This document shows, in pieces, positions 3,990 to 35,717 of a stretch of DNA of 64,000 nucleotides. Under the pieces are notes generated by a model, which saw only the letters and a program-made list of their open reading frames with translations, searched no databases and was not told where the DNA came from. A program made the position numbers and the translations under genes. Position 1 is the stretch's first letter, and each line of letters begins with the position of its first letter. This stretch comes from Candidatus Woesearchaeota archaeon (GTDB taxonomy: Archaea; Nanobdellota; Nanobdellia; Woesearchaeales; ARS49), in assembly GCA_037445145.1 (NCBI GenBank), contig JBBILB010000003.1:976-64975 (forward strand). The letters run 5' to 3'.

Positions 3990-5454
<1,465 letters not shown>

Positions 5455-5478
5455 TATTTATTTGTTAGGACGGAGTCC

Positions 5479-5580
5479 TTTGCAAGATGGGTCGAAAGAT
5501 CCATCCTGCAAATGTCACAAAAATCGCTTCGCGATTTTTGGGAACTCGAGAATTAGTGCATTCTCGAGCGATCACCTCCT
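5479..5580 (+). other. Structured 16S-23S spacer segment: three consecutive hairpins plus a second copy of the 16S 3-prime 11-mer
   Basis: Hairpin 5479-5512 has a 15-bp stem and a GAAA loop. Hairpin 5519-5539 is aaaaatcgc/gcgattttt. Hairpin 5545-5568 is ctcgagaat/attctcgag. Then gatcacctcct (5570-5580) is identical to 5444-5454. Confidence 0.8.
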
Positions 5581-5697
5581 ATTTCGTTTATACATTTAAA
5601 CGGAAAATTGTTGGCTGGGTGAAGCTTGCTGCTCTCCATTTTTCATATTCATTATGCGACCCAGAGCGATGGGTCCATGGATGAGTGCAAGTCTTCC

Positions 5698-5788
5698 GGG
5701 CCCGTAGCTCAACGGTAGAGCACCTGCCTTGCAAAGATGATGTCTTCAAGAGCGCGGGAGGCTTCGGGTTCAAATCCCGACGGGTCCA
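5698..5788 (+). tRNA. tRNA-Ala (anticodon UGC) with 19-nt intron (5734-5752), in the rRNA spacer
   Basis: Acceptor gggcccg/cgggtcc with the G3:U70 Ala identity pair. Anticodon loop ct-TGC-a. BHB: bulge CA|A, helix cuug/caag, bulge AG|C. Confidence 0.85.
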
Positions 5789-5818
5789 TAAGCCCAGAAG
5801 GGCGAATGGAGCCGGCGA

Positions 5819-5863
5819 CTTGAAAATCCCAGACGACCAACGTTAGTCGGGATTTTCATTGTC
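5819..5863 (+). repeat. Conserved hairpin element, copy B (after tRNA-Ala)
   Basis: cttgaaaatcccagac - 11-nt loop - gtcgggattttcattgtc. Arms are identical to copy A at 2213-2256. Confidence 0.8.
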
Positions 5864-6035
5864 TACAAGTCCATTAAACAAAAATCACATTCATCATTTC
5901 ATTCGATGAACGCAAATCGCAATTCCAAACAATTGCGGTTGAAGGGCAATAGGCTGTAGGAGTATGCTTGAGTGCATACGACCAGTTTACCACACCTACT
6001 ACATGCTAATGAAGCCGTGCAAAGATTGAGATCAT

Positions 6036-8958
6036 ATCTGGTCCTACACTACCCTAACAGGTGGAAGACTTGGTTCGAGACGCCGACGAAGGACGCGGCT
6101 AACGGCGAAATGCCCCGGCGACGTGTATGCAACGGTTGAACCGGGGGTGTCCGAATGGGACTTCCTCTTGAGCACGAAAGTGCGGGGAACGCGGGGAATT
6201 GAAACGTCTTAGTACCCGCAGGAAAAGAAACCAATTGGGATGCGCTTAGTAAGAGCGACTGAAAAGCGCGCAGGGCAAACCGAACGAGGGGACGAAAGTT
6301 CTCTCGAATGTGGTGTTTGGACCCATGCCAATGTCTCGCTGGGAAACGCAAAGTCGCCTGGAAAGGCGCGCGATACAGGGTGACAGCCCCGTAGCGGCAC
6401 CTCAGCAGATTACGAACATGGAGTTCCAGAGTACTGCTCCTCGGAAATGGAGCAGGAATACGGGGGGCATCAACCTCCAACCCTAAATACGTCTCGAGTC
6501 CGATAGCATACAAGTACCGTGAGGGAACGTTGAAAAGAACCCCTGACCGGGAGTTCAAAGATCCTGAAACCTGTTAGGCATGGATCGCTAGGGCACCACG
6601 GTGTTCTAGCGTTCGTTTAGAATAACGAGCCGGGGAGTGCATCTCAGTGGCAAGGCTAACCTTTACCGGGGAAGCCGAAGCGAAAGCAACAAGCCCGCAG
6701 GCAACGAGGGGCGAGGTGCTAATCCGCCTGGAGTCACTGGGATTCAACCCGAAACCGCTCGATCTTATCCTGAGTAAGGTGAAGTGCGGGTAAAACCGTG
6801 CGGAGGCCTGAAGAGGTTCTATGTGCAAGTGTTCTTCTAACTTGGGATAAGGGGTGAAAAGCCAATCGAGAGCGGTGATAGCTGGTTCCTATCGAAGTAG
6901 GCGTCAGTCTAACCTGGGACGAGCTGACAGGCGCTGTAGAGCTACGGATTGGGGGCTAGGGCATCGAAAGGTGTCGACCCCTTGTCCAACTCCGAAAGTG
7001 CCTGTAGTGTAGACTCCCAGAGACGGGGTGTCGGCGTAAGGTTGACATCCGAGAGGGGAACAACCCTGACGCTGGTTAAGGTCCCAAAAGATGCATTAAG
7101 TGTGAACGGGCATAAGGGTATCTGCGTCCAGAGACAGCGGGGAGGTCGGCTTAGAAGCAGCCATCCTTTAAAAAGTGCGTAACAGCTTACCCGTCAAGGA
7201 TGCGGGTCCCTAAAATGGACGGGGCTAAATGCATTACCGATACCAGCGACGCCCCAAAAGGGCGGAGTAGGTAGGCGTACTGCGTGGGCAGAAGCCTCTC
7301 CGTGAGGAGGGGTGGACCGCGTAGTAATGAAAATCCCGGCAGTAGTAGGATCGTAGCAGCGTGAGAATCGCTGCCACCGAAAGGGCAAGGGTTCCTTGGC
7401 ACTGTCGATCAGCCAAGGGTCAGTTGGTCCTAACAGAGCTCCCAACAGGAGCTGATGTGGAAAGGGAAACCGGTTAATATTCCGGTACTGCCTGTGTATG
7501 CGTGGCAACACAAGCCTTGTGTCAGACGCTTTTGGCTAGATGGGCGCAGACAGTCGTCTGCGTTAACCTGGATACGCCGCGGAAGTATCATCATGATGAG
7601 AACGCGGGGAAACCAGGGAACAGCATTCCTTTGGAGTGTCCTGTCAATGCCTGGAATCCGTGAAAATGGCACTGGGAAAAATCGCAGGCATCCGTACCCA
7701 GAACCAGCACTGGTGCCCCTAGGTGAGAAGCCTAAGGTGTGAAGGACGAACCTAGACAAGGGAACTCGGCAAATTGGCCCCGTGACTTCGGTTTAAGGGG
7801 TTCCTGCTTCTGTGCGCAAATGCGTGGCGGGAGCAGGGCGCAGTGACTCGGGGGGCCCGACTGTTTAACAAAAACACAACTGGTTGCGAAGCCGTAAGGC
7901 TGTGTACAACCGGTGACGTCTGCCCAGTGTCGGTATCCGAATCTCGTTTTCAAGCGGGCTAAGGACCGATTAACGGCGGGAGTAACTATAACTCTCTTAA
8001 GGTAGCGTAATGCCTTGTCGTTTGATTGGCGACGTGCATGAAGGGCGCAACGAGGTCCCCACTGTCCCTGTCTGGGAGCCTCCGAACAAATCCTTCTGGT
8101 GCAGAGACCAGAGATCTCCAGTGGGAAGCGAAGACCCCGTGAAACTTTACTGTAGCTTGTCGCTGCGACGCGAGTTGTGTTGTATAGGGTATGTGGGAGC
8201 TGCTTGAGCCCAGAGCCGTCAGACTCTGGGTGAGGCGACGATGTAACACCACACTCCACGACTTGCGTTGCTTACCTCTCGCAAGAGAGAGACACCGGCT
8301 GGCGGACAGTTCGGCTGGGGTGGCACGCAGTTGAAAAAATATCAATTGCGACCAAAGGTCTGCTCAACCCGGTCAGAAATCGGGTGTAGAGTTTAAGGGC
8401 AAAAGCAGGCCTGATGGGATACTTAATAAGATTGTATCCCAAGGCGAAAGCCTGGCCTAGCGAACCTCAATGCCTTCTTGATGAGGGCTTGGGATGACCG
8501 AAAAGTTACTCCGGGGGTAACAGAGTCGTCGCGCCTGAGAGTTCACATCGACGGCGCGGCTTGCTACATCGACGTCGGCTCTTCCTATCCTGGGCGTGCA
8601 GAAGCGTCCAAGGGTGCGGGAGTTCACCGTTTAAAAGGGATCGTTAGCTGGGTTCACAACGCTGTGAGGCAGTTGGTTTGATATCTACTGGAGATGCGAG
8701 ATGTCTGAGGGGAAGGAAGCTCTAGTACGAGAGGAACGAGCTTTCGGCGCCACTGGTGTACCGGTTATCCGATAGGGTATCACGCCGGGCAGCTACGCGC
8801 TGAGGGATAAGTTCTGAAAGCATCTAAGAATGAAACCCTCCTCGAAACGAGACATCATAGTGCACGGATTCAACATCCGTTTGATGGAAGCGGGGTGTAC
8901 GCGCGAAGGTAACGACGCGCTCAGCCTGCGCTCCCCAACGCACATACTTGGATTAGAT
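6036..8958 (+). rRNA. 23S rRNA (ends approximate, plus or minus 20 nt)
   Basis: Conserved 23S blocks are present (ccgacgaaggacgcgg, gtccgaatggg, ggggaattgaaac, gacggggctaa, ctgaaagcatctaag). The flanks pair as a processing stem: agccgtgcaaagat (6013-6026) with atctttgcacggct (8967-8980). No 5S follows. Confidence 0.9.
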
Positions 8959-25354: not shown

Positions 25355-26332
25355 TCATTCAATTGACTCTCGCGGACGACGCCTAGCAGGAGGGGCTGCC
25401 GCGGGCTGAACACGCTGAGCAGCAGGAGCAACCTGAGCAGCGTCTGCAGGAGCAGCAGCACATGCATCAGAAGCAGGCTGTGCAGCAGGAGGAGCAGCAG
25501 CACATGCATCAGAAGCAGGCTGTGCAGCAGGTCTTTGCCTGGGAGGACGGGCAACAGAAGCAGCCTGGGCATCCGGAGAATGCTGCATGGCAGCATTAGC
25601 AAGAGCATCCTGTGCAGTTTCTGCAGGAGTGACAGGAGCAGGAGCAACAGGCATGTTCCTTATGAACTCCCTGCACTGCTTCATCATTTCCCTTATTTCC
25701 TTTGTTTTTGTGCAATACCCAAATTCCTCAAGAGCCTCGCTGAACTGTCCATTGTTGAAATACAGCCCGCCAATGCATGCATGAATTGCCTTCTTCCTTT
25801 TCTCGCTTGGCTCAACAGCAAGGGCTTTTTTGTAAAGCACAAGCGCCTTATCCATATTCTTATAATACCACTCAAAAGCAGAATTGCACAGTCCTACAGA
25901 ACGTTCTGATGAGCGCAGAATGCCGTAATTTTCTCTCCTCAACTGCCTGTTTTCCTTGTTCAGCCTGCTTATCTCCTGCCTGAGCCCTTTGACGTGCAGT
26001 GAAGTAAGGTTTTGGCTGAGCCTTTCCAGAACGCAGTATTTCTCCGGCTGTTTCTTCTTGAAGTCTGTCCTGCCAACATGGGCGGCATAAACATCAATCA
26101 TCCTTGCTGCATAAGCGCGCACGCTGCCGGAAAGCTCATAAGCAACGTCGCCAAGAGTGCTGACAAGATAATCGATGCGGTTGCTGGTTGTCCTTGGCTC
26201 AATTTTGCCAACAATCGCTTCTTTTATCAAGTCAAGTGCGTACTGCCTTGACTCGCTCATTTTTTCATAAGCTTCCTTGAAATCAAGGGAATTCCAAATC
26301 TCGGCAATTTTCCGCTCAAGCCTTGATGTCAT
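25355..26332 (-). CDS. TPR-like protein with Ala/Pro-rich repeat tail, uncharacterised
   Basis: Helical N-terminal half and TPR-like ALVLYKKALAVEPSEKRKKAIHACIGGLYFNNGQFSEALEEF. The C-terminus contains a 14-aa tandem AAQPASDACAAAPP. Confidence 0.65.
   Translation of the reverse strand: MTSRLERKIAEIWNSLDFKEAYEKMSESRQYALDLIKEAIVGKIEPRTTSNRIDYLVSTLGDVAYELSGSVRAYAARMIDVYAAHVGRTDFKKKQPEKYCVLERLSQNLTSLHVKGLRQEISRLNKENRQLRRENYGILRSSERSVGLCNSAFEWYYKNMDKALVLYKKALAVEPSEKRKKAIHACIGGLYFNNGQFSEALEEFGYCTKTKEIREMMKQCREFIRNMPVAPAPVTPAETAQDALANAAMQHSPDAQAASVARPPRQRPAAQPASDACAAAPPAAQPASDACAAAPADAAQVAPAAQRVQPAAAPPARRRPRESIE
25451..25531. repeat. 42-bp-period tandem duplication inside the CDS
   Basis: The 39-nt unit agcagcagcacatgcatcagaagcaggctgtgcagcagg occurs at 25451-25489 and 25493-25531. 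Confidence 0.85.
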
Positions 26333-27848
26333 TGCTGTTGACCCCTTGGCTGTTTTTCCTTACGTCGGCAAGGAATTTTTGGGCGTTTATATGGTTTGGG
26401 TCTATCCGCAGCACTTGCTCAAGGTCAGAAGCTGCCATATTGAGCAGTCTAAGCTCCTCAAGCGCGGTTGCGCGGTTGTAATAAAGGGCAGCCAGTTTAG
26501 GGTCGTCCTCTGCCGCAGTGATTATTGCAAGCGTGTACACCAATGCCGCACCCTCATAGTCCCCCCTCTCGTCAAGCCCGAACGCAAGCTTCCTTGCATC
26601 AGTGCTTACCCTGGCAAGCCTTTGCTCAAGCTGGATAATCCTTTCATCCTTTTCTTCCTGCTCCCTTTTGAATCGCGCAGTGGTTTCTTTGTATTCTTCC
26701 GCATAGGCTTTCTTGAGGGCATCATGCTCTTTTACAAGTTCATCGTAATCTTTTTTCAGTTTGTTGTAATCCCTGAGCGCTGCCTGCAAACCTGCATTCT
26801 CCTTCTGCAATGCTTCGTTTTCCTTAACCTGTTTGCCCGATATTTCTTCCAGTTTCTTATATTTGCCACCAAGCTCATCCAGCCTTTGTGTCTGTGATTT
26901 GATTGTGTCGTCTCGGTCAGCAACTGTTTTTTCAAGCTCTGCAATCCGGGCTTTCAATGCAACGTAATCATTGAGTGCTGTTTCTGCGTCTGCAACCTTC
27001 CTGGTTAGCTCATCATAATCAGCCCTGACTGACTTCAGTTCTTCAAGCTGTTTCTGCAGGCTTTCATTGTCCTTGAGCAGCTGATTACGTTGCGCCTCTA
27101 ACGTGGCACACGTTTCTAGGAGTTCATTTAATCTCTTATCCCGTTCAGAAACAGTTTGTGTGCTCTCAGCCAGCCTTGCTTCAAGCTCTTTTTTCTGCTT
27201 TGCATCAGCAGCCAATTGGCCGCGCTCCTCATTCCTGCGGCCAAGCTCTTCCTTGATTTTGGTGATGGCAAGAGGGTAAAGCTCCATAACCCTTTCAGGA
27301 CCAGCAGGGCTGTCTGCAACGCCATTCTTCTGGAGGAGATTCTCCTTTTGCTCATTGTACCAGCCCCTGAGCCCAAGGCAGTCCACAATCTCCTCTATTG
27401 ATGCAAGGCAGCGGTTGAATGCGCGCTCTGTTTCCTGTTCCCTGCGCCCAAGTGCTTCCTTTGCGGTTTCGATGAGGAAATCATAAACTTTCATTTCCAC
27501 AGGATGAGGTGCAGGACGGTCAGGAGCAATTCCATGGCTTGCGTAAATTTCCCTTTTCTTTCCCTGGCACCAATCAAACAGCCTTGCATGCATTATGATT
27601 TCGTCCACAAATGTTGCAAAGCGCATAACGATGTCTTCCTTTTCTTTCACCTGATTCGCGTAGAAGTCAATGATGTGCGCGAGCTGCTGGGGCCTGTCAA
27701 ACCCTGCCTTGCGGATTTTTTGCGCAAGCTCAGGATTTTGTCTTTCCAAAATGGGCAAAACGCGCATCATGTCAGCAGCCATGTCAGTCAACTGCACGGC
27801 TGCTTCTGCGTCTGACTGCCTTGGCAGCTTGCCTGCCGTGGCGCTCAT
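26316..27848 (-). CDS. Coiled-coil protein with C-terminal TPR, uncharacterised (510 aa)
   Basis: Internal duplication (HGIAPDRPAPHPVEMKVYDFLIETAKEALGRREQE / NGVADSPAGPERVMELYPLAITKIKEELGRRNEE). About 230-aa continuous coiled coil. C-terminal YYNRATALEELRLLNMAASDLEQVLRIDPNHINAQ (TPR). Confidence 0.7.
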   Translation of the reverse strand: MSATAGKLPRQSDAEAAVQLTDMAADMMRVLPILERQNPELAQKIRKAGFDRPQQLAHIIDFYANQVKEKEDIVMRFATFVDEIIMHARLFDWCQGKKREIYASHGIAPDRPAPHPVEMKVYDFLIETAKEALGRREQETERAFNRCLASIEEIVDCLGLRGWYNEQKENLLQKNGVADSPAGPERVMELYPLAITKIKEELGRRNEERGQLAADAKQKKELEARLAESTQTVSERDKRLNELLETCATLEAQRNQLLKDNESLQKQLEELKSVRADYDELTRKVADAETALNDYVALKARIAELEKTVADRDDTIKSQTQRLDELGGKYKKLEEISGKQVKENEALQKENAGLQAALRDYNKLKKDYDELVKEHDALKKAYAEEYKETTARFKREQEEKDERIIQLEQRLARVSTDARKLAFGLDERGDYEGAALVYTLAIITAAEDDPKLAALYYNRATALEELRLLNMAASDLEQVLRIDPNHINAQKFLADVRKNSQGVNSNDIKA

Positions 27849-29743: not shown

Positions 29744-30028
29744 ATGAACACAAACCAATCATTTGGAAACATTTACAGCGCGAAAGGCTTTGATCTCAAG
29801 AGCGAGATTGCTGCCTACGAGCCGCATTACGAAGGGCAGAAGCCTGCACCAGTTGCAGTTCCGCCTGTGGTTCCAGCACCGGCTAAGCCGGTGCTGAACC
29901 CTGATGATGTTTCAATCGTCATATTCGGCAGCCATGAGGAACAGACTTGCAAGCTTGCAAAGCATGACCGCGACCTGAACCACATACTCAACTCAGGAAG
30001 CATTCCAGAAGACGAAGACATGTCCTGA
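29744..30028 (+). CDS. Small hypothetical protein (94 aa), Pro-rich centre
   Basis: ORF with an ATG start and an upstream TATA. No family recognised. Confidence 0.4.
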   Translation: MNTNQSFGNIYSAKGFDLKSEIAAYEPHYEGQKPAPVAVPPVVPAPAKPVLNPDDVSIVIFGSHEEQTCKLAKHDRDLNHILNSGSIPEDEDMS

Positions 30029-30260
30029 TTTTTCGCTTTTTCTTTATTTTTTTAACTTATTTTGTTAGTCTCACTTTCGTTCTCTTACCCTGTCACCTCT
30101 TTATGTTTTATCAGACAATTCCAATAGTGCCTAAGCACTTTTTGGTTCCTGAGTCGGGTTTTTTTTGGCAAATCCCAGCACAACACTCTTGAAAACCAGC
30201 TGGGAGTTAGGCGCTTCCTGTTGACTTCTGTTTCCTATGTAACTCTCACTTTTGTTTAGC

Positions 30261-30380
30261 AATGGTTTTTATTTTTAATATTTAGAGAAATATAGACAAA
30301 AATATGCTCTTAGTAATACTGTTTCTAAACTATTTTTTATTAAAGATATTTTTAAAAAGAATATTTTTTAAAACAACTTT
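30261..30380. other. Extreme AT-rich block (DUE-like)
   Basis: By my count, 18 G/C in 120 nt. It is flanked by CTCACTTT boxes on the left (30070, 30245) and an inverted AAAGTGAG box on the right (30722). Confidence 0.6.
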
Positions 30381-30970
30381 CCTGATTTCTAGTTTATGCT
30401 ACAACTGTCACCCAAGGTAAGTAAAATTTTGGTTTTCCGTCGGTAAAACAGCTAAAACCCGCAACCGATTTAAAATGAATTTTTTGCAAAAACCTTTTTT
30501 TGGCTAAATCAGGGTTTTTTGGGCTTTCAGAAGATACTCAAATTTGTCAGGGAAAAAGCCAGAATTACTCATAGTTGGGTCTCGGACTGGGTGTTTTGGC
30601 ATATAACCAAGGGTATGAGCCAAGAAGCCCTTGACCTTGTTTGTTGGGAAAATACCAAAAAAGCAGGCATTTTACCGACGCTGACTGTATTTTTGCTGAA
30701 ACCTTGATTTTTGCGCACACCAAAGTGAGGATGGTTTGTGTTTTTAGTCGGGATTTTTAGCGAATTCTGACGCTGATGGTTGAAAAATGCTTTAAAAAGC
30801 CATACTTTAAGACGTTTTCGTAAAAAAGTCTTTCCTAAAGCGGTTTAAACGAAAAAACAGCCAAATTCTGGTATTTCTACGACAATTTTCAATAATCCCT
30901 GTCGGTTTTTCACTGGACACTGGTCGGGATTACGCAAGGCTTTTTAAGGAGTAGTGCTCAACACTTGAAA

Positions 30971-31498
30971 ATGAAAATCCAACTCGAGCATTCTGAATTG
31001 CCAGAACAAGCAGTTACAGAGGATATTGCCAAAACAATCCTTGCAAGGTTCGGGCTTTTGCCCAGGAAAAAAGACGGCAATGCACAAATGCACAAGCTCC
31101 TTCTCGAGCTTTTAGAACGGAAAAAGGCTGCAAACAGGGAGAAAAAGCCAGAAGCAGCAGTCATGCCTGTCGAGGACATGGGCCTTTTTGCAGGCATAAA
31201 AAGGCAGACCATGTACGAATACTTGCACCGCTGGCTTGACCTGAATATCCTCAAGAAAACCAGCTTTGTGAGCAATGGGAAAGTCGTGATTGGCTATGAG
31301 CTGAACGGCACAAACCTGGAAGGGGCTTTCAGAAAGGCAGAAGCGACGATAAAAACACACCTTGACTACTCCTTCAAACTCATTGAAAAATTGCAAAACG
31401 AAATAAAAAAGGAGAAGCTCAGGACAGGGGCTTCTGAACTGCCTGAGAATCCTGAGGCGCCTGCATCCAGTGAGACAAAAGAGAATTCAGGCCAATAA
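30971..31498 (+). CDS. Small winged-helix protein, uncharacterised (175 aa)
   Basis: ATG at 30971 with TATA ctttttaagg about 28 nt upstream. HTH-like GLFAGIKRQTMYEYLHRWLDLNILKK plus a wing (VVIGYELNG). Helical tail. Its 3-prime end overlaps the convergent gene by 80 nt. Confidence 0.55.
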   Translation: MKIQLEHSELPEQAVTEDIAKTILARFGLLPRKKDGNAQMHKLLLELLERKKAANREKKPEAAVMPVEDMGLFAGIKRQTMYEYLHRWLDLNILKKTSFVSNGKVVIGYELNGTNLEGAFRKAEATIKTHLDYSFKLIEKLQNEIKKEKLRTGASELPENPEAPASSETKENSGQ

Positions 31499-31988
31499 CG
31501 ACCTCTTTTGCCTGTTTCTGCCTGAATTTGGGCTCTAATTGCACAAAAGCATGTCCACCGTCGTATTTCTTGATTATGGGAACGCCTTTCTCAATGAGGT
31601 TTGTGACAAAGCCTGAAACCAAAGCCTCGCTGGTGCCGAGCTTCCTTGCAAGCTGTTTGTAGCTGACAAAAGGGATGCTCTCTCCGACGATATACAATGC
31701 CTGGAAGACCTCCTGCTCGCGCTTTGTCAGCGGCTGGATTTCAACCTTATGCTCTGCCTTTTTCCCCTCAACAAGAAGGAAAAGCTCCTCTATGCGGGCG
31801 TGCAGCTTGTCAAGCTTTTCCTCGACAGAACGAATGTATTCGTGGTTTGCCTGAATCTCATTCGTGTTCTCGTTAATTGCTGCCCGATGATCGTCAAGCT
31901 CCTCCCTCAAGGCGTCAAAAATTGAATTCATTGCAAGCCGTGCGCCTGCATCGTCACTGTGCACTAACAATGCCTGTTTTCCCTTCAA
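31419..31988 (-). CDS. Coiled-coil + C-terminal winged-helix protein, uncharacterised
   Basis: TTG start at 31988 preceded by aaggggtgg (SD-like); alternative ATG at 31931. LREELDDHRAAINENTNEIQANHEYIRSVEEKLDKLHARIEEL, then LTKREQEVFQALY...YKQLARKLGTSEALVSGFVTNLIEKG. Confidence 0.6.
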   Translation of the reverse strand: MKGKQALLVHSDDAGARLAMNSIFDALREELDDHRAAINENTNEIQANHEYIRSVEEKLDKLHARIEELFLLVEGKKAEHKVEIQPLTKREQEVFQALYIVGESIPFVSYKQLARKLGTSEALVSGFVTNLIEKGVPIIKKYDGGHAFVQLEPKFRQKQAKEVVIGLNSLLSHWMQAPQDSQAVQKPLS

Positions 31989-32074
31989 ACAGTACCACCC
32001 CTTAATGTACCCTTACCGTCGATGACTTTCTCGTCTCGGCCAGCTCCTTTAAAAGCATTTTTGTTCTGGAAACC

Positions 32075-32785
32075 TTATTTTCCAATCGGCTTTTTCAGGT
32101 GGCCTCCGACCATAAGCAGCTTTTCCTTGCCGTCGTGAATCACGCTAATGGCATTTTCTGCCTCAAGCTCCTCAAGTAGCCTGTAAAAGCTGCTCTTGCT
32201 GGCAAGACCCTGCTCCTCGACGAGCATCTCCCTCAGCTGGAGTGCTGAGATCTTGCCGTACTTCGTGATCATGCTCATAATAAGCCCCTTCAGGTATTCC
32301 TTTGAGTTCCTCGTGATGCGCTGGACAATCTTGTCCCTCAATGCCTGTGTTCTCGATACTGCAGGGGGTATGTGAGGCAGTTCTGAAACATCACGCCTTA
32401 CTTGCTGGACAGCAGAAGCTGCCTTCAAATGCTCCAATCTGGTCAATTTGTCCTCTATTTGCCTGACGCGCTCCAAAATGGCATCAAAATCGTAATAGGC
32501 GTCTATTATGCGCTTTATTGTCGCAGAATCTTTTGGCACTGACCTGATCTCTGCCTGCAGGCGCTCTATCATCTGCCTTTGCCTCAGGATTTCCTGCTCG
32601 TAGTCATCAAAGTCATGCTGTTGGGCTTCTATTATCTGTTGCTGCCTTGCTGCCTGCTGTTGGAAAAACTGCACCCACTGATAAAGCGCGGTAGTATCTT
32701 GCTTTACATGAGCAAAGCTCGCCCTGAGCGCCTTGTCCAACCGGTCAACTTTGTCCTCAACCTCTTTTCCGAAAATCCACCCCAT
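32075..32785 (-). CDS. Coiled-coil + C-terminal winged-helix protein, uncharacterised (236 aa)
   Basis: ATG at 32785 with TATA tttttatacc about 25 nt upstream (leaderless). Q-rich coiled coil, then ISALQLREMLVEEQGLASKSSFYRLLEELEAENAISV (wHTH). Confidence 0.6.
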   Translation of the reverse strand: MGWIFGKEVEDKVDRLDKALRASFAHVKQDTTALYQWVQFFQQQAARQQQIIEAQQHDFDDYEQEILRQRQMIERLQAEIRSVPKDSATIKRIIDAYYDFDAILERVRQIEDKLTRLEHLKAASAVQQVRRDVSELPHIPPAVSRTQALRDKIVQRITRNSKEYLKGLIMSMITKYGKISALQLREMLVEEQGLASKSSFYRLLEELEAENAISVIHDGKEKLLMVGGHLKKPIGK

Positions 32786-32854
32786 ACCCAAACAAAAACA
32801 AACAGAGGTATAAAAATTTTTCTAACAGCATCTTTTCAGCTGATTTTTCAGGTT

Positions 32855-33318
32855 TGGGATGGTCCCAGGACCTTCCTGGCACAGTCCCAGGACTCTTTTG
32901 GGAATATCCTGGGAACATTTTGGTTTATTTTATCGACGATAAAACAATATTCCCACATTCCCAATTGGGACTATATGGGAATGAATTGGGAATATCTTAA
33001 GACGGAGATGGGAATATTCTGGGAATGATTGGGAATGAAACAGGACTATCAGAAACTTTTCGGGACGATAAACTGGGACTGGTTGGGAATATCTGGGAAT
33101 GAGTTGGGAATGAGAATGATGTGCTGATTACAGGATAATGCTGAACTCCTGCGAAAAAGACAGCCCTATTTAGGATTGTGAATGAGCGGGAATAAAATGC
33201 TTTGTGGAAAATTCCAGATTATCATTCCCAACAATATGATTGTTTGTAAACAAGAAAGGCATGGAACAGGACGCAAGCTGCATATAATATATAGTGTGAC
33301 AGCAAAGTAATTGGGAAT
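32855..33318. repeat. Array of about 20 TGGGAAT heptamers (iteron-like), 10-11 bp phasing within clusters
   Basis: Exact forward copies start at 32899, 32976, 32987, 33009, 33020, 33030, 33084, 33094, 33105, 33312. Reverse copies (ATTCCCA) start at 32949, 32957, 33224. One-mismatch variants are at 32855, 32910, 32966, 33074, 33187. Confidence 0.9.
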
Positions 33319-33648
33319 GCTTGGATTTGGGGCGTGGCTGGGCAGGACTTGGTTAGGCATGTCAGGCAGAGTTAACAGCAGAAGGCAGGTATGGTGCATT
33401 GATAAGGATTTTCTGGTGCCTAATAACTTACAAAACACATGGTGCCTAGGAGGTTAAAAGTAAGCGTTCAGAACAGGTTAGGAAAGATTAAGAAAGGACA
33501 ACCTTGTGAGTGAAAAGTGAGAGTTCAATAAAAGTTTTAGTATATTAGGCACTATTAAAGAATGGTGATTTTAAGTCAAAAGTGAGCAAAAACCAGCATC
33601 AAAAGGGTTAAATATACGGCGTTTATTCATAAAAAGTGAGTAGAACAC

Positions 33649-34353
33649 ATGATGGATCCAAACAAATATCCTTGGTTTTATGCACCAGAACTGCCAAAAA
33701 GTGGCGAAATCAGCCTGGATGCTGAAGAATTAAGGCACATAAAGGTCCAAAGGATAAAGCCAGAAGACAAAGTGAGCCTGTTCAATGGTAAAGGCACTGT
33801 GGCCATTTGCACAATCACAAGCGAAGGCAAAGCAAGAATAATCGAGGTTCATGAAGTCCCAAAAAGCACGTTTTCGCTGTTTATAGCCGTTGGCGTACCA
33901 AAAGGAGAGCGTGCTGACTGGATGCTACAAAAACTCGGCGAACTCGGCGCCTCGTCAATAATACCCTTACAAACAGAGTGTTCTGTGGTGCTTCCAAGAA
34001 AAACAAAACAGGAGCGCTGGCAAAGAATCCTGACAGAAGCATGCAAGCAGAGCAAGCAGGCATGGATTCCAGAGCTAAAGCCCCTGTCGACGATAGAAGA
34101 GGCATTGAAGCAAGAGGCAGAGCTTAAAGTCCTTCTTGACCAAACAGGAAAGAATACCACTGAACTTCTGCAGGAAAAGCCCAAATCAGTGCTTGCATTT
34201 ATAGGGCCAGAAGGTGGCTTCACACAAGACGAGAAAAAGCATCTTCTGGCATCAGGATGCAGGCTTGTGTCCCTTTGCAAACAAACACTCAGGGTAGAAA
34301 CAGCAGCAATAGCAATGGCGGTTGTGATAAATATTCTCGGAAAAAACGAATAA
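33649..34353 (+). CDS. rsmE: 16S rRNA (uracil-N3) methyltransferase RsmE-like (SPOUT)
   Basis: N-terminal PUA-like (HIKVQRIKPEDKVSLFNGKG). C-terminal knot IGPEGGFTQDE...LSLCKQTLRVETAAIAMAV. Confidence 0.8.
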   Translation: MMDPNKYPWFYAPELPKSGEISLDAEELRHIKVQRIKPEDKVSLFNGKGTVAICTITSEGKARIIEVHEVPKSTFSLFIAVGVPKGERADWMLQKLGELGASSIIPLQTECSVVLPRKTKQERWQRILTEACKQSKQAWIPELKPLSTIEEALKQEAELKVLLDQTGKNTTELLQEKPKSVLAFIGPEGGFTQDEKKHLLASGCRLVSLCKQTLRVETAAIAMAVVINILGKNE

Positions 34354-35195: not shown

Positions 35196-35717
35196 ATGGG
35201 GTTTGTAAGAATTAAAAAGATAAAAGGAAGCGAATATGGCTATCTTGTAGAAAATACCTGGACTGCAAAAGGCTCAAGGCAGAAAGTCAAGGCATACCTT
35301 GGCAAAATCATAAAGCCCGTCAAAGAAAGTGAGCTGCCTGCTCCTGAACTGAAAAAGCTTTCTTACCCGGATGCAGTAAAGGCAATAGCAAAATGGACCC
35401 TTCTCCAGCACGGCTTTCAGGAAGGCTCTGAGAGCATGCTGATAAGCGGAACAGTGCTTGCAGACCTTGGAGAGCTCAAAGTCATCAACAAGACAAGCCC
35501 TGCAGTAATCAAGATGCACGAAGGATTCCTCTGCACGCACACATTGCAGCAGGCAATAGGGTTTATTCCATCAGGCAATACGGAGGAAATAATTGGCAAG
35601 GAGCTGGCGAATGTGCTTCTTGAGGCAGGGCTTTCAGTCCCGCACGAGATCTTTGTCCAGCTTTTTGAGAAAGTCCATAACGCTTATAAACCGAACACTA
35701 ATGAGGACACGCAATGA
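35196..35717 (+). CDS. Conserved hypothetical protein
   Basis: ATG at 35196 (the track GTG at 35169 is rejected). MGFVRIKKIKGSEYGYLVENTWTAKGSRQKVKAYLGK N-terminal box. TATA tttaaata at 35161. Confidence 0.55.
   Translation: MGFVRIKKIKGSEYGYLVENTWTAKGSRQKVKAYLGKIIKPVKESELPAPELKKLSYPDAVKAIAKWTLLQHGFQEGSESMLISGTVLADLGELKVINKTSPAVIKMHEGFLCTHTLQQAIGFIPSGNTEEIIGKELANVLLEAGLSVPHEIFVQLFEKVHNAYKPNTNEDTQ

Follow-up and report, generated by a model that had tools for sequence, protein, structure and literature searches.

The locus described here lies within a 64,000-nucleotide stretch of Woesearchaeal DNA (the window) in a chromosomal setting, with the rRNA operon and ribosomal protein genes nearby. 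Its conserved neighboring genes are UPPS, o173, rpoL, a methyltransferase gene, wH236, wH189, wH175 or XerA, and PAC2. The wH236 gene (32075–32785, minus strand) encodes a 236 amino acid protein, identical to public-collection entry P0001, and is leaderless; its ATG at 32785 and its TATA box about 27 bp upstream of this codon (32809–32816, minus strand) match the description in the first-pass annotation of this DNA. Just downstream, wH189 (31419–31988, minus strand) is a second coiled-coil plus winged-helix gene with an SD-like leader and a separate TATA box, and is present in 78 of 80 related loci. The third member of the cluster, wH175 (30971–31498, plus strand), encodes another DNA-binding-like protein that is very highly conserved and restricted to about half of the clade. 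BLASTP detected no paralogy between the three proteins. Divergent from wH236 lies a gene for an RsmE-type rRNA methyltransferase (33649–34353, plus strand; PF04452, E = 2.5e-44), whose place is taken in an AT-rich clade by a different small SAM methyltransferase gene. A XerA-type recombinase gene is syntenic in half of the order; in the clade lacking wH175 it adjoins the wH236/wH189 pair at 25 or more loci. Two small open reading frames, 29744–30028 (plus) and 29827–30021 (minus), are not conserved. No partition NTPase (ParM, TubZ or actin-like ATPase) was found in the conserved neighborhood, either in the window or in the relatives, and no Rep-like gene was found linked to the repeat array described below.

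The phased repeat array

The intergenic region upstream of wH236 is 860 bp long, and its promoter-proximal portion, beginning about 40 bp upstream of the TATA box, is occupied by an array of the heptamer TGGGAAT and its variants (called “a” sites here). All of the sites listed in the first-pass annotation were recovered on rescanning the sequence: exact forward copies starting at 32899, 32976, 32987, 33009, 33020, 33030, 33084, 33094, 33105 and 33312, exact reverse copies (ATTCCCA, minus strand) starting at 32949, 32957 and 33224, plus-strand variants at 32855 (TGGGAT), 32910 (TGGGAAC), 32966 and 33074 (both TGGGAC) and 33187 (CGGGAAT), and two GGTCC-CA-GGACC-type palindromes (32861–72 and 32883–94) that carry “a” cores on the gene strand. 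The core array (32855–33111, plus strand; consensus TGGGA[A/C]T[A/G][T/A]nn) is divided into blocks A (32855–32916), B (32966–32993), C (33009–33036) and D (33074–33111). The outlying sites, CGGGAAT at 33187 (plus), ATTCCCA at 33224 (minus) and TGGGAAT at 33312 (plus), occupy a stretch (33177–33318) that aligns poorly between close relatives.

The enrichment of TGGGAAT in the array is beyond doubt. Thirteen exact copies lie within 32899–33318 and ten across the remaining 63.5 kb (at 4809, 24520, 28213, 28454, 28602, 39345, 46774, 53743, 55685 and 61147), where a non-exhaustive look had earlier noticed just two; the heptamer is rare outside the array, and not common at a similar density throughout, as had been considered. 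The window total of 23 compares with 9.9 ± 3.1 (maximum 17) in shuffled sequences, the background rate predicts about 0.07 copies per 420 bp where 13 are observed (Poisson probability ∼1e-25), and sites with at most one mismatch number 12 and 9 in the two 500-bp bins of the array versus a mean of 1.6.

The phasing of this TGGGAAT-type array is real. Successive sites are 10, 11, 22, 11, 10, 44, 10, 10 and 11 bp apart, and the 12 plus-strand sites in 32899–33111 share a single phase (best period 10.85 bp, R = 0.91, Rayleigh p ∼4e-5), so that the period is closer to 11 than to 10.5 bp. Steps of 11 bp place all of the sites on one face of the helix; a common face had been proposed from the 10/11-bp spacing inside clusters, and the phase extends across the blocks as well. 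Sites occur on both strands and form dyads at the promoter-proximal end, where TGGGAT at 32855 together with the palindromes of 32861–32894 makes TGGGA-N3-TCCCA, and the reverse copies at 32949 and 32957 make TTCCCAATTGGGA with the site at 32966. The TGGGA-N3-TCCCA dyad near the promoter is as expected of a dimeric DNA-binding protein.

Other conserved non-coding elements

Other motifs are interleaved with the “a” sites and are likewise conserved. The palindrome block GGGATGGTCCCAGGAC hardly varies in alignment A2, and palindrome-type sequences TCCCAGGA / CCCAGGAC are found in 24–27 of 77 loci. The “d” element (32928–32944), a perfect 17-bp palindrome TTTTATCGACGATAAAA between blocks A and B, is conserved in the same alignment; a relative of its half-site, GGGACGATAAAC, lies between blocks C and D (33062–33073), and “d”-type sequences GACGATAA / ATCGACGA are present in 26–31 of 77 loci (≤450 bp). 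A conserved TATA-like element, GCATATAATATATAGTGTGACA, lies in mid-intergenic position (33280–33301) and is followed by some 90 nt of variable, GC-rich sequence, for which no consistent common fold was found in the relatives. Beyond this, a distal field (33416–33640, plus strand) contains motif “c” (GTGCCTA at 33416, 33442 and 33546 (−)) and motif “b” (AAAAGTGAG at 33514, 33579 and 33633). The “b” copy at 33633 overlies the point where transcription of the RsmE gene is expected to begin (TATA 33608–33615, ATG 33649), and in the loci “b” also occurs on the sense strand in the 5′ end of the divergent gene and, in two different reading frames, within its coding sequence. Motif “b” is as universal and invariant as “a”, and its strand distribution over the loci is 347:0; “c” tracks wH175 (22 of 33 loci versus 0 of 30).

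On the far side of the three-gene cluster from the array lies a second conserved non-coding region (region 1, 30060–30970), with an AT island (30258–30397, GC 17.9%) located 2.5 kb from the array, GTCGG[G/T] repeats, one “c” site (30127), and “b” sites at 30070 (−), 30245 (−) and 30722 (+) that point away from the AT island on each side. No AT island lies inside the array itself, and “a” sites are absent from region 1 ahead of wH175.

Conservation in related genomes

The locus was compared in 80 related genomes with 34–88% protein identity (81 loci with the window). TGGGA[A/C]T[A/G][T/A] is enriched upstream of the wH236 homolog in all 80, and the position, orientation and periodicity of the array, whose presence beside homologous genes the first-pass annotation had proposed to look for, are conserved in every one; the array is thus conserved across the order and linked to the wH236 gene. 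The array consists of 12–20 copies of the 9-bp site, set 11 bp apart in blocks of 3–4. The orientation bias across loci is 868:214, with a median per 700 bp of 10 cores in the main orientation versus 1 in the opposite one, and about one core per locus over the other 7 kb. Adjacent sites are most often 11 bp apart (230 cases, compared with 85 at 10 bp and 21 at 12 bp), all-pair spacings peak at 22, 33, 44, 55 and 66 bp, and this helix-type ladder is retained in genomes of 29–50% GC. In a consensus built from the 230 eleven-bp units of the 81 loci the information lies in positions 1–9, and positions 10–11 are free. Close relatives retain the sites while the spacers between them have changed, which argues for selection on the sites rather than recent duplication. 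When viral and metagenome collections were scanned for TGGGAAT in three phased copies, most of the matches listed were unrelated tandem repeats, and the Woesearchaeal ones among those listed all lie at the wH236 locus.

The wH236 protein and its promoter

The AlphaFold2 model of wH236 (pLDDT 79) has an N-terminal helix of about 80 residues and two more helices, which make up a coiled-coil extension of about 125 residues, then a disordered linker (residues 124–144) and a C-terminal winged helix (146–226). No family in Pfam or NCBIfam matched the protein, and a PDB profile search with it returned coiled-coil noise only. Foldseek searches with the model found generic winged-helix folds (ArsR, MarR, PadR, Fur); the TubR structure 6aht is among the weak matches (E = 0.04, TM 0.21/0.42), as a generic winged helix. 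The recognition helix reads SKS[S/T/A]FYR in 267 of 267 family members examined (those from the profile search being among its best 150 of 565 matches), and this invariance parallels that of the TGGGA core; no member with an altered helix, in which covariation with the motif might be seen, was present in that set. The recognition helix of wH189 is poorly conserved, which makes wH189 a less likely array binder, and “a” sites are not enriched before its gene (12 of 78 gaps). The products of 32075–32785 and 31419–31988 had both been put forward as partners of the array; the first stands as the candidate and the second is less likely.

Across the 56 loci with a confident start, the wH236 ATG is preceded by a TATA-like element at about −32, and in 18 of these loci an “a” core falls inside −30 to +6. 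In many relatives the sites adjoin the TATA box or fall between it and the ATG: in the AT-rich clade they stop at the BRE/TATA box, with TGGGA[A/C]T in gene sense at about −20, and in another clade a core lies at about −10. In the subclade of the window some 40 bp separate the TATA box from the closest good site upstream of it, and the one-mismatch TGGGTAT that overlaps the ATG in the window is not conserved in L001, so that simple promoter occlusion is not evident in this subclade.

A possible platform for cooperative binding

The array is most likely a docking platform on which many copies of wH236 would line up along one face of the DNA. We propose, with moderate confidence, that it is a cis-acting element for cooperative binding of wH236, which would repress its own gene and build a complex resembling those on parC and tubC. 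The choice of wH236 as binder is an inference from the adjacency of its gene and the conservation of its recognition helix; the cooperativity, the repression and any structural role are likewise putative. The single winged-helix head of each molecule would read a single site, heads on neighboring sites would touch one another, and the long N-terminal coiled coils would join adjacent molecules into a continuous stripe, block by block. In many lineages this stripe should reach the BRE/TATA region and the transcription start, and so shut off the wH236 promoter. The large complex may also act structurally, in a centromere-like or chromosome-organizing role, much as ParR-parC and TubR-tubC combine autoregulation with segregation. 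The presence of XerA beside the gene pair in the clade without wH175 is circumstantial support for the platform. Against this proposal, the number of sites (10–22) greatly exceeds the needs of an ordinary operator, and a plain DNA-binding model leaves the absolute strand specificity of “b” in the same intergenic region unexplained.

The first-pass annotation had read the array as a site of cooperative protein wrapping of the iteron or parC type. The conserved array on one helical face is as that reading predicted, and R1 parC and tubC are its closest formal analogs; but no Rep, partition NTPase or Orc1/Cdc6 gene is linked to it, which leaves iteron, centromere and operator unseparated, and its sites lie on both strands. 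In R1 parC two sets of five 11-bp iterons flank the promoter, ParR binds cooperatively at about one dimer per iteron, and the complex, a large and bent nucleoprotein structure, represses the promoter (PMC2241845). The array shares with it direct repeats of about 11 bp, split into blocks beside the promoter of the putative binder's gene. It differs in its size (12–22 sites over 260–460 bp, compared with 10 over 159 bp), its interleaved extra motifs, its chromosomal, archaeal and vertically inherited state across an order, the lack of a linked ParM or other NTPase gene, and its candidate reader, modeled as a winged helix with a coiled coil where ParR is a ribbon-helix-helix protein. The tubC sites of pBtoxis and phage c-st always lie upstream of a small winged-helix binder gene, consist of direct repeats in blocks that can exceed 350 bp, and cover the promoter, serving both repression and segrosome formation (PMC6009700). 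Here too the array has split blocks of direct repeats upstream of its candidate binder's gene that overlap the promoter, but its repeat sequence and period are different, TubZ is absent, wH236 matches TubR as a generic winged-helix fold, and TubR has no coiled-coil extension of about 125 residues.

Other repeat systems are more distant. Plasmid iterons are 17–22-bp repeats beside a rep gene and an AT-rich region, whereas the array has an 11-bp unit, no Rep-like gene and a chromosomal context. The omega repressor of pSM19035 binds cooperatively to many 7-bp heptads, direct and inverted, upstream of the promoters it regulates, and doubles as a centromere-binding protein; its heptads follow one another without gaps (7-bp period) and their reader is a ribbon-helix-helix dimer, unlike the 11-bp period and winged-helix candidate reader here. 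In RacA-ram and MatP-matS a DNA-binding head with a long coiled coil ties specific chromosomal sites together or connects them to structures of the cell. The wH236 protein also appears to be a DNA-binding head fused to a coiled coil, but the ram and matS sites are dispersed over a chromosomal domain and do not form one phased array before the binder's own gene.

Alternative interpretations

At least three other conserved motifs (“b”, “c” and “d”) and two other winged-helix genes are present at the locus, so the binder could be a different protein: wH189, wH175, a XerA-type recombinase or a distantly encoded regulator might read the phased array, and might chiefly control the divergent methyltransferase gene or the divergent promoter region as a whole. 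Three winged-helix genes share the locus with four motif classes, “c” follows wH175 so that an arrangement of one motif per protein is plausible, and “b” could be the wH236 site instead. XerA reads 11-nt arms, and the Thermococcales dif arms (ATTGGATATAA, PMC4640148) are loosely similar to TTGGGAATAT. However, the “a” sites cluster specifically at the wH236 promoter and not before wH189 or wH175, the reading helix of wH189 varies while the “a” core does not, and wH175 and the adjacent XerA are each absent from half of the array-bearing loci. A Xer/dif site is a single-copy pair of 11-nt inverted arms 6 nt apart (PMC8371274), but no conserved 11-6-11 dif-like site was found beside the syntenic XerA genes, nor any dif-like dyad composed of “a” units within the window. 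We consider a reader other than wH236 rather unlikely. The repeats might instead act in RNA, a transcript with UGGGAAU and AAAAGUGAG sequestering an RNA-binding protein in the manner of CsrB/RsmZ; the strand bias (4:1 for “a”, absolute for “b”), the sense-strand “b” copies in the divergent gene, a GGA core like that of CsrA targets and the conserved TATA-like elements within the intergenic region all point this way. Yet the repeat ladder tracks the DNA helical repeat, one-fifth of the “a” sites are inverted and make DNA dyads, and “a” sites border the TATA box and start of a gene on the opposite strand. The covariance models of Rfam 15 gave no match at gathering score in the whole window and nothing relevant at E ≤ 5 in 29900–33750, and no structure is consistent in the relatives. 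Single-sequence and alignment folds score strongly, but equally so on both strands because the elements are DNA palindromes, and such scores are thus uninformative; a role at the RNA level seems very improbable. The least credible explanation, of almost negligible probability, is a neutral minisatellite without function. Unrelated contigs from phages and metagenomes also contain three to five copies of TGGGAAT set 11 bp apart, so an independent origin of such repeats is possible, but place, orientation and phase are kept here in 80 genomes at 34–88% protein identity, and the conserved cores with varying spacers together with the conservation of the locus rule a minisatellite out.

The array could also be part of a chromosomal replication origin or origin-control region: a 3.6-kb replicator with origin-associated proteins, made up of region 1, the three DNA-binding genes and the array-bearing intergenic region, in which the array would load or titrate an initiator or accessory factor. 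Region 1 is conserved like coding DNA (74–80% over about 880 bp, nearly gapless), and its AT island, 140 bp with the lowest GC content anywhere in the window (the next has 27% GC), lies between inverted “b” repeats, as in the textbook picture of an AT-rich unwinding element with repeats on either side (PMC5333045). Cumulative GC skew reaches its minimum at 32–33 kb, and the best strand-corrected GC3 boundary, with origin polarity, is at 33 kb; but the skew is weak, as 20 of 300 permutations reach the GC3 boundary signal and the difference at fourfold sites is about 1.5 SE over 64 kb. Like the mini-ORB arrays of Pyrococcus and Methanothermobacter, the locus has numerous short repeats within a conserved intergenic region of some length; its AT-rich island between inverted repeats lies 2.5 kb from the array and in the wH175 clade only. 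Mini-ORB arrays bind their initiator cooperatively, with repeats on both sides of a DNA-binding gene and a second cluster inside a neighboring gene; in Pyrococcus, cdc6 lies between ORB clusters, one of them within dp1 (PMC1904270), and DNA-binding genes between two repeat clusters together with “b” sites inside neighboring coding sequence recall this arrangement. The mini-ORB consensus has invariant TTCC and GAA cores as a dyad (PMC1904270), of which “a” contains only TTCC; no cluster of TTCC-N3-GGAA dyads was found, and ORB-type TTCCNNNGGAA occurs three times in the 64 kb and nowhere near the locus. The 11-bp register is shorter than a mini-ORB, and ORB footprints of 13–36 bp are too large for it. 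Orc1/Cdc6, which is single-copy in Woesearchaeales (10.64898/2026.05.13.725050), was not found in the window or in the 10 kb past its right end, which covers 33 kb on the left of the locus and 41 kb on the right, nor within 4–10 kb in relatives. The half of the clade without wH175 also lacks region 1 with its AT-rich DNA, yet keeps the array, and the rRNA operon (4–9 kb) is transcribed toward the locus and thus head-on to forks that would leave it. An origin function for the array is accordingly judged unlikely.

Implications for Woesearchaeal biology

DPANN archaea are uncultured or barely cultured, and their gene regulation and chromosome handling are almost unknown. The locus offers a fully specified DNA element (site, register and blocks), a candidate protein, and natural replication in more than 80 genomes, and the proposal is therefore directly testable in vitro with synthetic DNA and recombinant protein. 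A bolder and distinctly tentative idea, to which we give little weight, is that the whole 3.6-kb module (AT-island region, three lineage-specific winged-helix genes and array) is a chromosome-maintenance hub of the Woesearchaeales, the array being the chromosomal centromere or origin-control element that a “kinetochore-like” coiled-coil adaptor reads, away from orc1 and with no linked ParA, ParM or TubZ motor; we know of no description of such an arrangement in archaea. Should the AT-rich region turn out to be an origin, this would be an archaeal origin unlinked to orc1, and the rotation and comparison of complete Nanobdellota genomes would be affected. If wH236 binds as proposed, the array and wH236 would be the first defined pair of cis element and factor for Woesearchaeota, and a chromosomal archaeal counterpart, without motors, of the plasmid parC and tubC complexes.

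Genomic setting

The window comes from the chromosome of a Woesearchaeota (DPANN) archaeon, and the nearest relatives of its proteins carry the label Candidatus Woesearchaeota. The archaeal 16S-23S operon occupies 3990-8957 and has in its spacer a tRNA that ARAGORN calls tRNA-Gln(ttg), with no 5S rRNA detected downstream of the 23S gene. Several tRNA genes are present, some of unusual length; three of 91-101 nt (2286-2386, 2442-2535 and 5698-5788) presumably owe it to introns, and the first of these was called by Rfam and missed by ARAGORN. The genes for ribosomal proteins L1, L10, and L12 lie at 38-40 kb and those for rpoL and UPP synthase at 35-36 kb; between the latter two, here and in 69 of 80 related loci, sits o173 (35196-35717), whose 173-aa product matches nothing in Pfam or NCBIfam. 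Two adjoining minus-strand genes at 25355-27848, kept in the closest relatives only, encode large coiled-coil and TPR proteins, one of which has an alanine/proline-rich repetitive C-terminus with PAAQPASDACAAAP twice.

The TGGGAAT array (its repeats are called 'a' sites here) is the wH236-promoter-proximal part of an 860 bp intergenic region (32786-33648) between two divergent genes, wH236 (32075-32785, minus strand), encoding a 236-aa winged-helix-type protein, and a gene for an RsmE-type rRNA methyltransferase (33649-34353, plus strand; PF04452, E = 2.5e-44).

The phased array and its conservation

The window contains 23 TGGGAAT copies, compared with 9.9 ± 3.1 (maximum 17) in dinucleotide shuffles. 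Thirteen of them fall in 32899-33318, 420 bp in which the background rate predicts about 0.07 copies. All site coordinates given by the first-pass annotation proved correct; its view that the heptamer is rare elsewhere stands, but ten copies lie outside the array rather than the two it had noticed. From 32966 to 33105, one plus-strand site follows the next at 10, 11, 22, 11, 10, 44, 10, 10, and 11 bp, and a period of 10.85 bp (R = 0.91) fits the 12 sites in 32899-33111 best, so the helical phasing claimed within clusters holds between blocks as well as inside them.

When genomes were scanned with an alignment of wH236 homologs, 80 loci from different species-level genomes were recovered (34-88% protein identity). 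Their gene order is stable (UPP synthase, o173, rpoL, methyltransferase, the long intergenic region, wH236, a second winged-helix-type gene wH189, the next gene, and PAC2), and the slot between wH189 and PAC2 is filled either by a third winged-helix-type gene, wH175, on the opposite strand or by an XerA-type recombinase gene. TGGGA[A/C]T is concentrated upstream of the wH236 homolog in every one of the 80 loci, with typically 5-17 exact TGGGAAT in the upstream 1.2 kb versus 0-3 in the other ∼7 kb. Orientation is biased 868:214, with TGGGA predominantly on the strand that does not encode wH236. Successive spacings are 11 bp (n = 230), 10 bp (n = 85), and 12 bp (n = 21), and all-pair distances peak at 22, 33, 44, 55, and 66 bp; within the 11 bp unit, positions 1-9 carry information (TGGGA[A/C]T[A/G][T/A]) and positions 10-11 carry none. 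Close relatives keep the sites while spacers and site number change, which rules out a young tandem duplication as the source of the array; judged from these alignments, selection acts on a register of sites. The first-pass annotation had considered that the heptamer might be common throughout the genome or the array not conserved in relatives. The count of 13 copies in the array versus ten in the rest of the window, and the conserved position, orientation, and spacing ladder in the 80 loci, therefore reject both, and the sequences describe a real, strongly selected, helically phased, putative protein-binding array.

Many public MAGs with this Woesearchaeota-specific locus are titled "uncultured Methanosarcinales archaeon" and one "Patescibacteria group bacterium" (L003, L007, L008, L057, and others among the fetched loci, which carry L-numbers); these labels are probably wrong or the contigs misbinned.

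Viral and metagenome collections were also scanned for three phased TGGGAAT copies; the matches listed were mainly unrelated tandem repeats, and the Woesearchaeal ones among them were all at this locus. Unrelated phage contigs (L083/L096, L086/L090/L105, and L091/L094) carry 3-5 exact copies at 11 bp spacing (e.g., TGGGAATcgttTGGGAATcgttTGGGAAT) and appear to have independent iteron- or operator-like arrays with the same heptamer and register. Thus, the heptamer-plus-11-bp design is not unique to the Woesearchaeal lineage; what is unique to it is the conserved linkage of a phased heptamer array to wH236.

Other motifs and elements of the locus

Three further conserved motifs occur in the intergenic region. 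Motif 'b', AAAAGTGAG(agtt), is found 347:0 on one strand across 81 loci and in the window at 33514, 33579, 33633, and 33769; one copy covers the point at which transcription of the divergent methyltransferase gene is expected to begin. An AT-rich clade has three more copies inside the methyltransferase coding sequence (L038 2924-3600), and since these lie in two different reading frames, the constraint on this one-strand-only, frame-indifferent motif is evidently on nucleic acid and not on protein. Motif 'c', (TA)GTGCCTAA (also written GTGCCTA), is present in loci L001-L036 in both orientations, overlaps TATA-like sequences, and lies at 33416-33552 and 30127 in the window. Motif 'd' is a palindrome, TTTTATCGACGATAAAA (32928-32944), positioned between 'a' blocks, and relatives of it exist. 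Mid-intergenically, the segment 33280-33412 begins with a strongly conserved TATA-like element, GCATATAATATATAGTGTGACA (33280-33301), which may be the promoter of a small transcript; it is followed by a GC-rich stretch of about 90 nt whose sequence differs from relative to relative and for which no shared fold is predicted.

In the clade without wH175, an XerA/XerC-type tyrosine recombinase gene adjoins wH189 in at least 25 loci. It encodes 276 aa (L232 11794-12624, just downstream of the wH236-wH189 pair) and is usually tail to tail with the pair, sometimes 55 bp off; other such loci are L018, L029, L030, L033, L037-39, L043, L044, L047, L048, L050, L052-54, L056-59, L063, L071, L075-77, and L079. 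No 11-6-11 dif-like site was found beside the syntenic XerA-type genes, and the 64-kb window has no gene of this type.

The candidate binding protein and the wH236 promoter

No Pfam or NCBIfam family includes the wH236 protein. AlphaFold2 models it (mean pLDDT 79) with an N-terminal helix of ∼80 residues, two more helices, a disordered linker (residues 124-144), and a C-terminal winged helix (residues 146-226). Foldseek finds only generic winged-helix relatives (ArsR/SmtB, MarR, PadR, and Fur), with TubR and the archaeal centromere-binding protein AspA among the weak matches. All 267 family members compared have SKS[S/T/A]FYR as their recognition helix, which fits the invariant TGGGA core of the 'a' sites. 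The wH189 gene (31419-31988) is universal too, but the recognition helix of its product is poorly conserved; the gene is preceded by a TATA box and an SD-like leader of its own, and in the related loci 'a' sites show no enrichment upstream of it. The wH175 gene (30971-31498) is nearly invariant where it occurs, but about half of the loci lack it. Two or more copies of motif 'c' lie upstream of wH236 in 22 of the 33 loci that possess wH175 versus 0 of 30 without it; this difference suggests that 'c' may be the wH175 site but is confounded by shared ancestry. On these grounds 'a' is assigned to wH236, which we regard with moderate confidence as the candidate reader.

The wH236 TATA box (32809-32816) precedes the ATG by about 27 bp, a distance that makes the mRNA leaderless. 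In the 56 loci with a fixable start codon, a TATA-like element lies at about -32, and an 'a' core falls within -30 to +6 in 18. The last two or three 'a' sites of the AT-rich clade run up to the BRE/TATA box, and beyond the TATA box, at about -20, comes a TGGGA[A/C]T in gene sense; another clade has an 'a' core at about -10. For the subclade of the window, the closest good site lies some 40 bp upstream of the TATA box and is part of a conserved dyad, TGGGAT-GG-TCCCAGGACC. Because of these positions around the BRE/TATA box and start, the factor that reads 'a' almost certainly controls the wH236 promoter.

Alternative roles of the repeats

The strand bias, and the fact that 'b' lies in the sense direction of the methyltransferase gene, argue that 'b' works at the RNA level. 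For 'a', however, the spacing ladder follows the DNA helix, inverted copies and dyads are present, the sites flank the TATA box of an oppositely oriented gene, and neither an Rfam match nor a consistent fold was found for the region, all of which argues that 'a' acts as DNA.

It is also unlikely that the array belongs to a replication origin, although a second conserved non-coding region on the far side of the three winged-helix genes (region 1, 30060-30970) has a textbook origin layout (PMC5333045). Region 1, found only in relatives with wH175, is conserved like coding DNA (74-80% identity over ∼880 bp against the related loci L001-L005, with hardly any gaps) and includes the 140 bp of the window that are richest in AT (30258-30397, GC 17.9%); AAAGTGAG ('b') sites lie in inverted orientation around this AT island (30070 and 30245, minus; 30722, plus), accompanied by several GTCGG[G/T] repeats and, at 30127, by GTGCCTA ('c'). 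The placement of DNA-binding genes amid two repeat clusters, with intragenic sites, recalls Pyrococcus oriC-cdc6-dp1 (PMC1904270), and the cumulative GC skew of the window is lowest at 32-33 kb. When GC3 skew was regressed on gene strand and side, the best boundary, with origin polarity, likewise fell at 33 kb, but it is not significant (reached by 20 of 300 permutations), and the four-fold-site skew difference is only about 1.5 SE. Moreover, orc1/cdc6, single-copy in this order (10.64898/2026.05.13.725050), is absent from -33 to +41 kb of the locus, no ORB-type dyads were found in the window, the 11 bp register is too tight for ORB footprints, half of the clade lacks region 1, and the rRNA operon points toward the locus.

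Proposed mechanism and known parallels

We propose that wH236 binds 'a' as DNA, each 9 bp site being occupied by one winged-helix head. Adjacent heads would lie 11 bp apart on the same DNA face and the coiled-coil domains would bundle neighboring molecules, so that binding should be cooperative inside blocks of 3-4 sites and in phase from block to block. The complex would reach the BRE/TATA box and start site, and wH236 would repress its own promoter. The 10-22 sites per array and their order-wide conservation suggest that the predicted complex may have an architectural role too.

The closest formal analogs, as judged by layout, are R1 parC, in which two sets of five 11 bp iterons flank the promoter and ParR binds cooperatively in both autoregulation and the partition complex (PMC2241845), and tubC, with direct repeats in split blocks upstream of tubR and a dual function (PMC6009700). 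The array does not belong to either family: it lacks a linked RHH protein, genes for ParM, TubZ, or ParA are not linked to it in the window or the related loci, and it is chromosomal. It is a chromosomal archaeal, putatively protein-binding array of the iteron/parC/tubC kind that is conserved across an order and tied to a new winged-helix coiled-coil protein family, with no linked motor or initiator.
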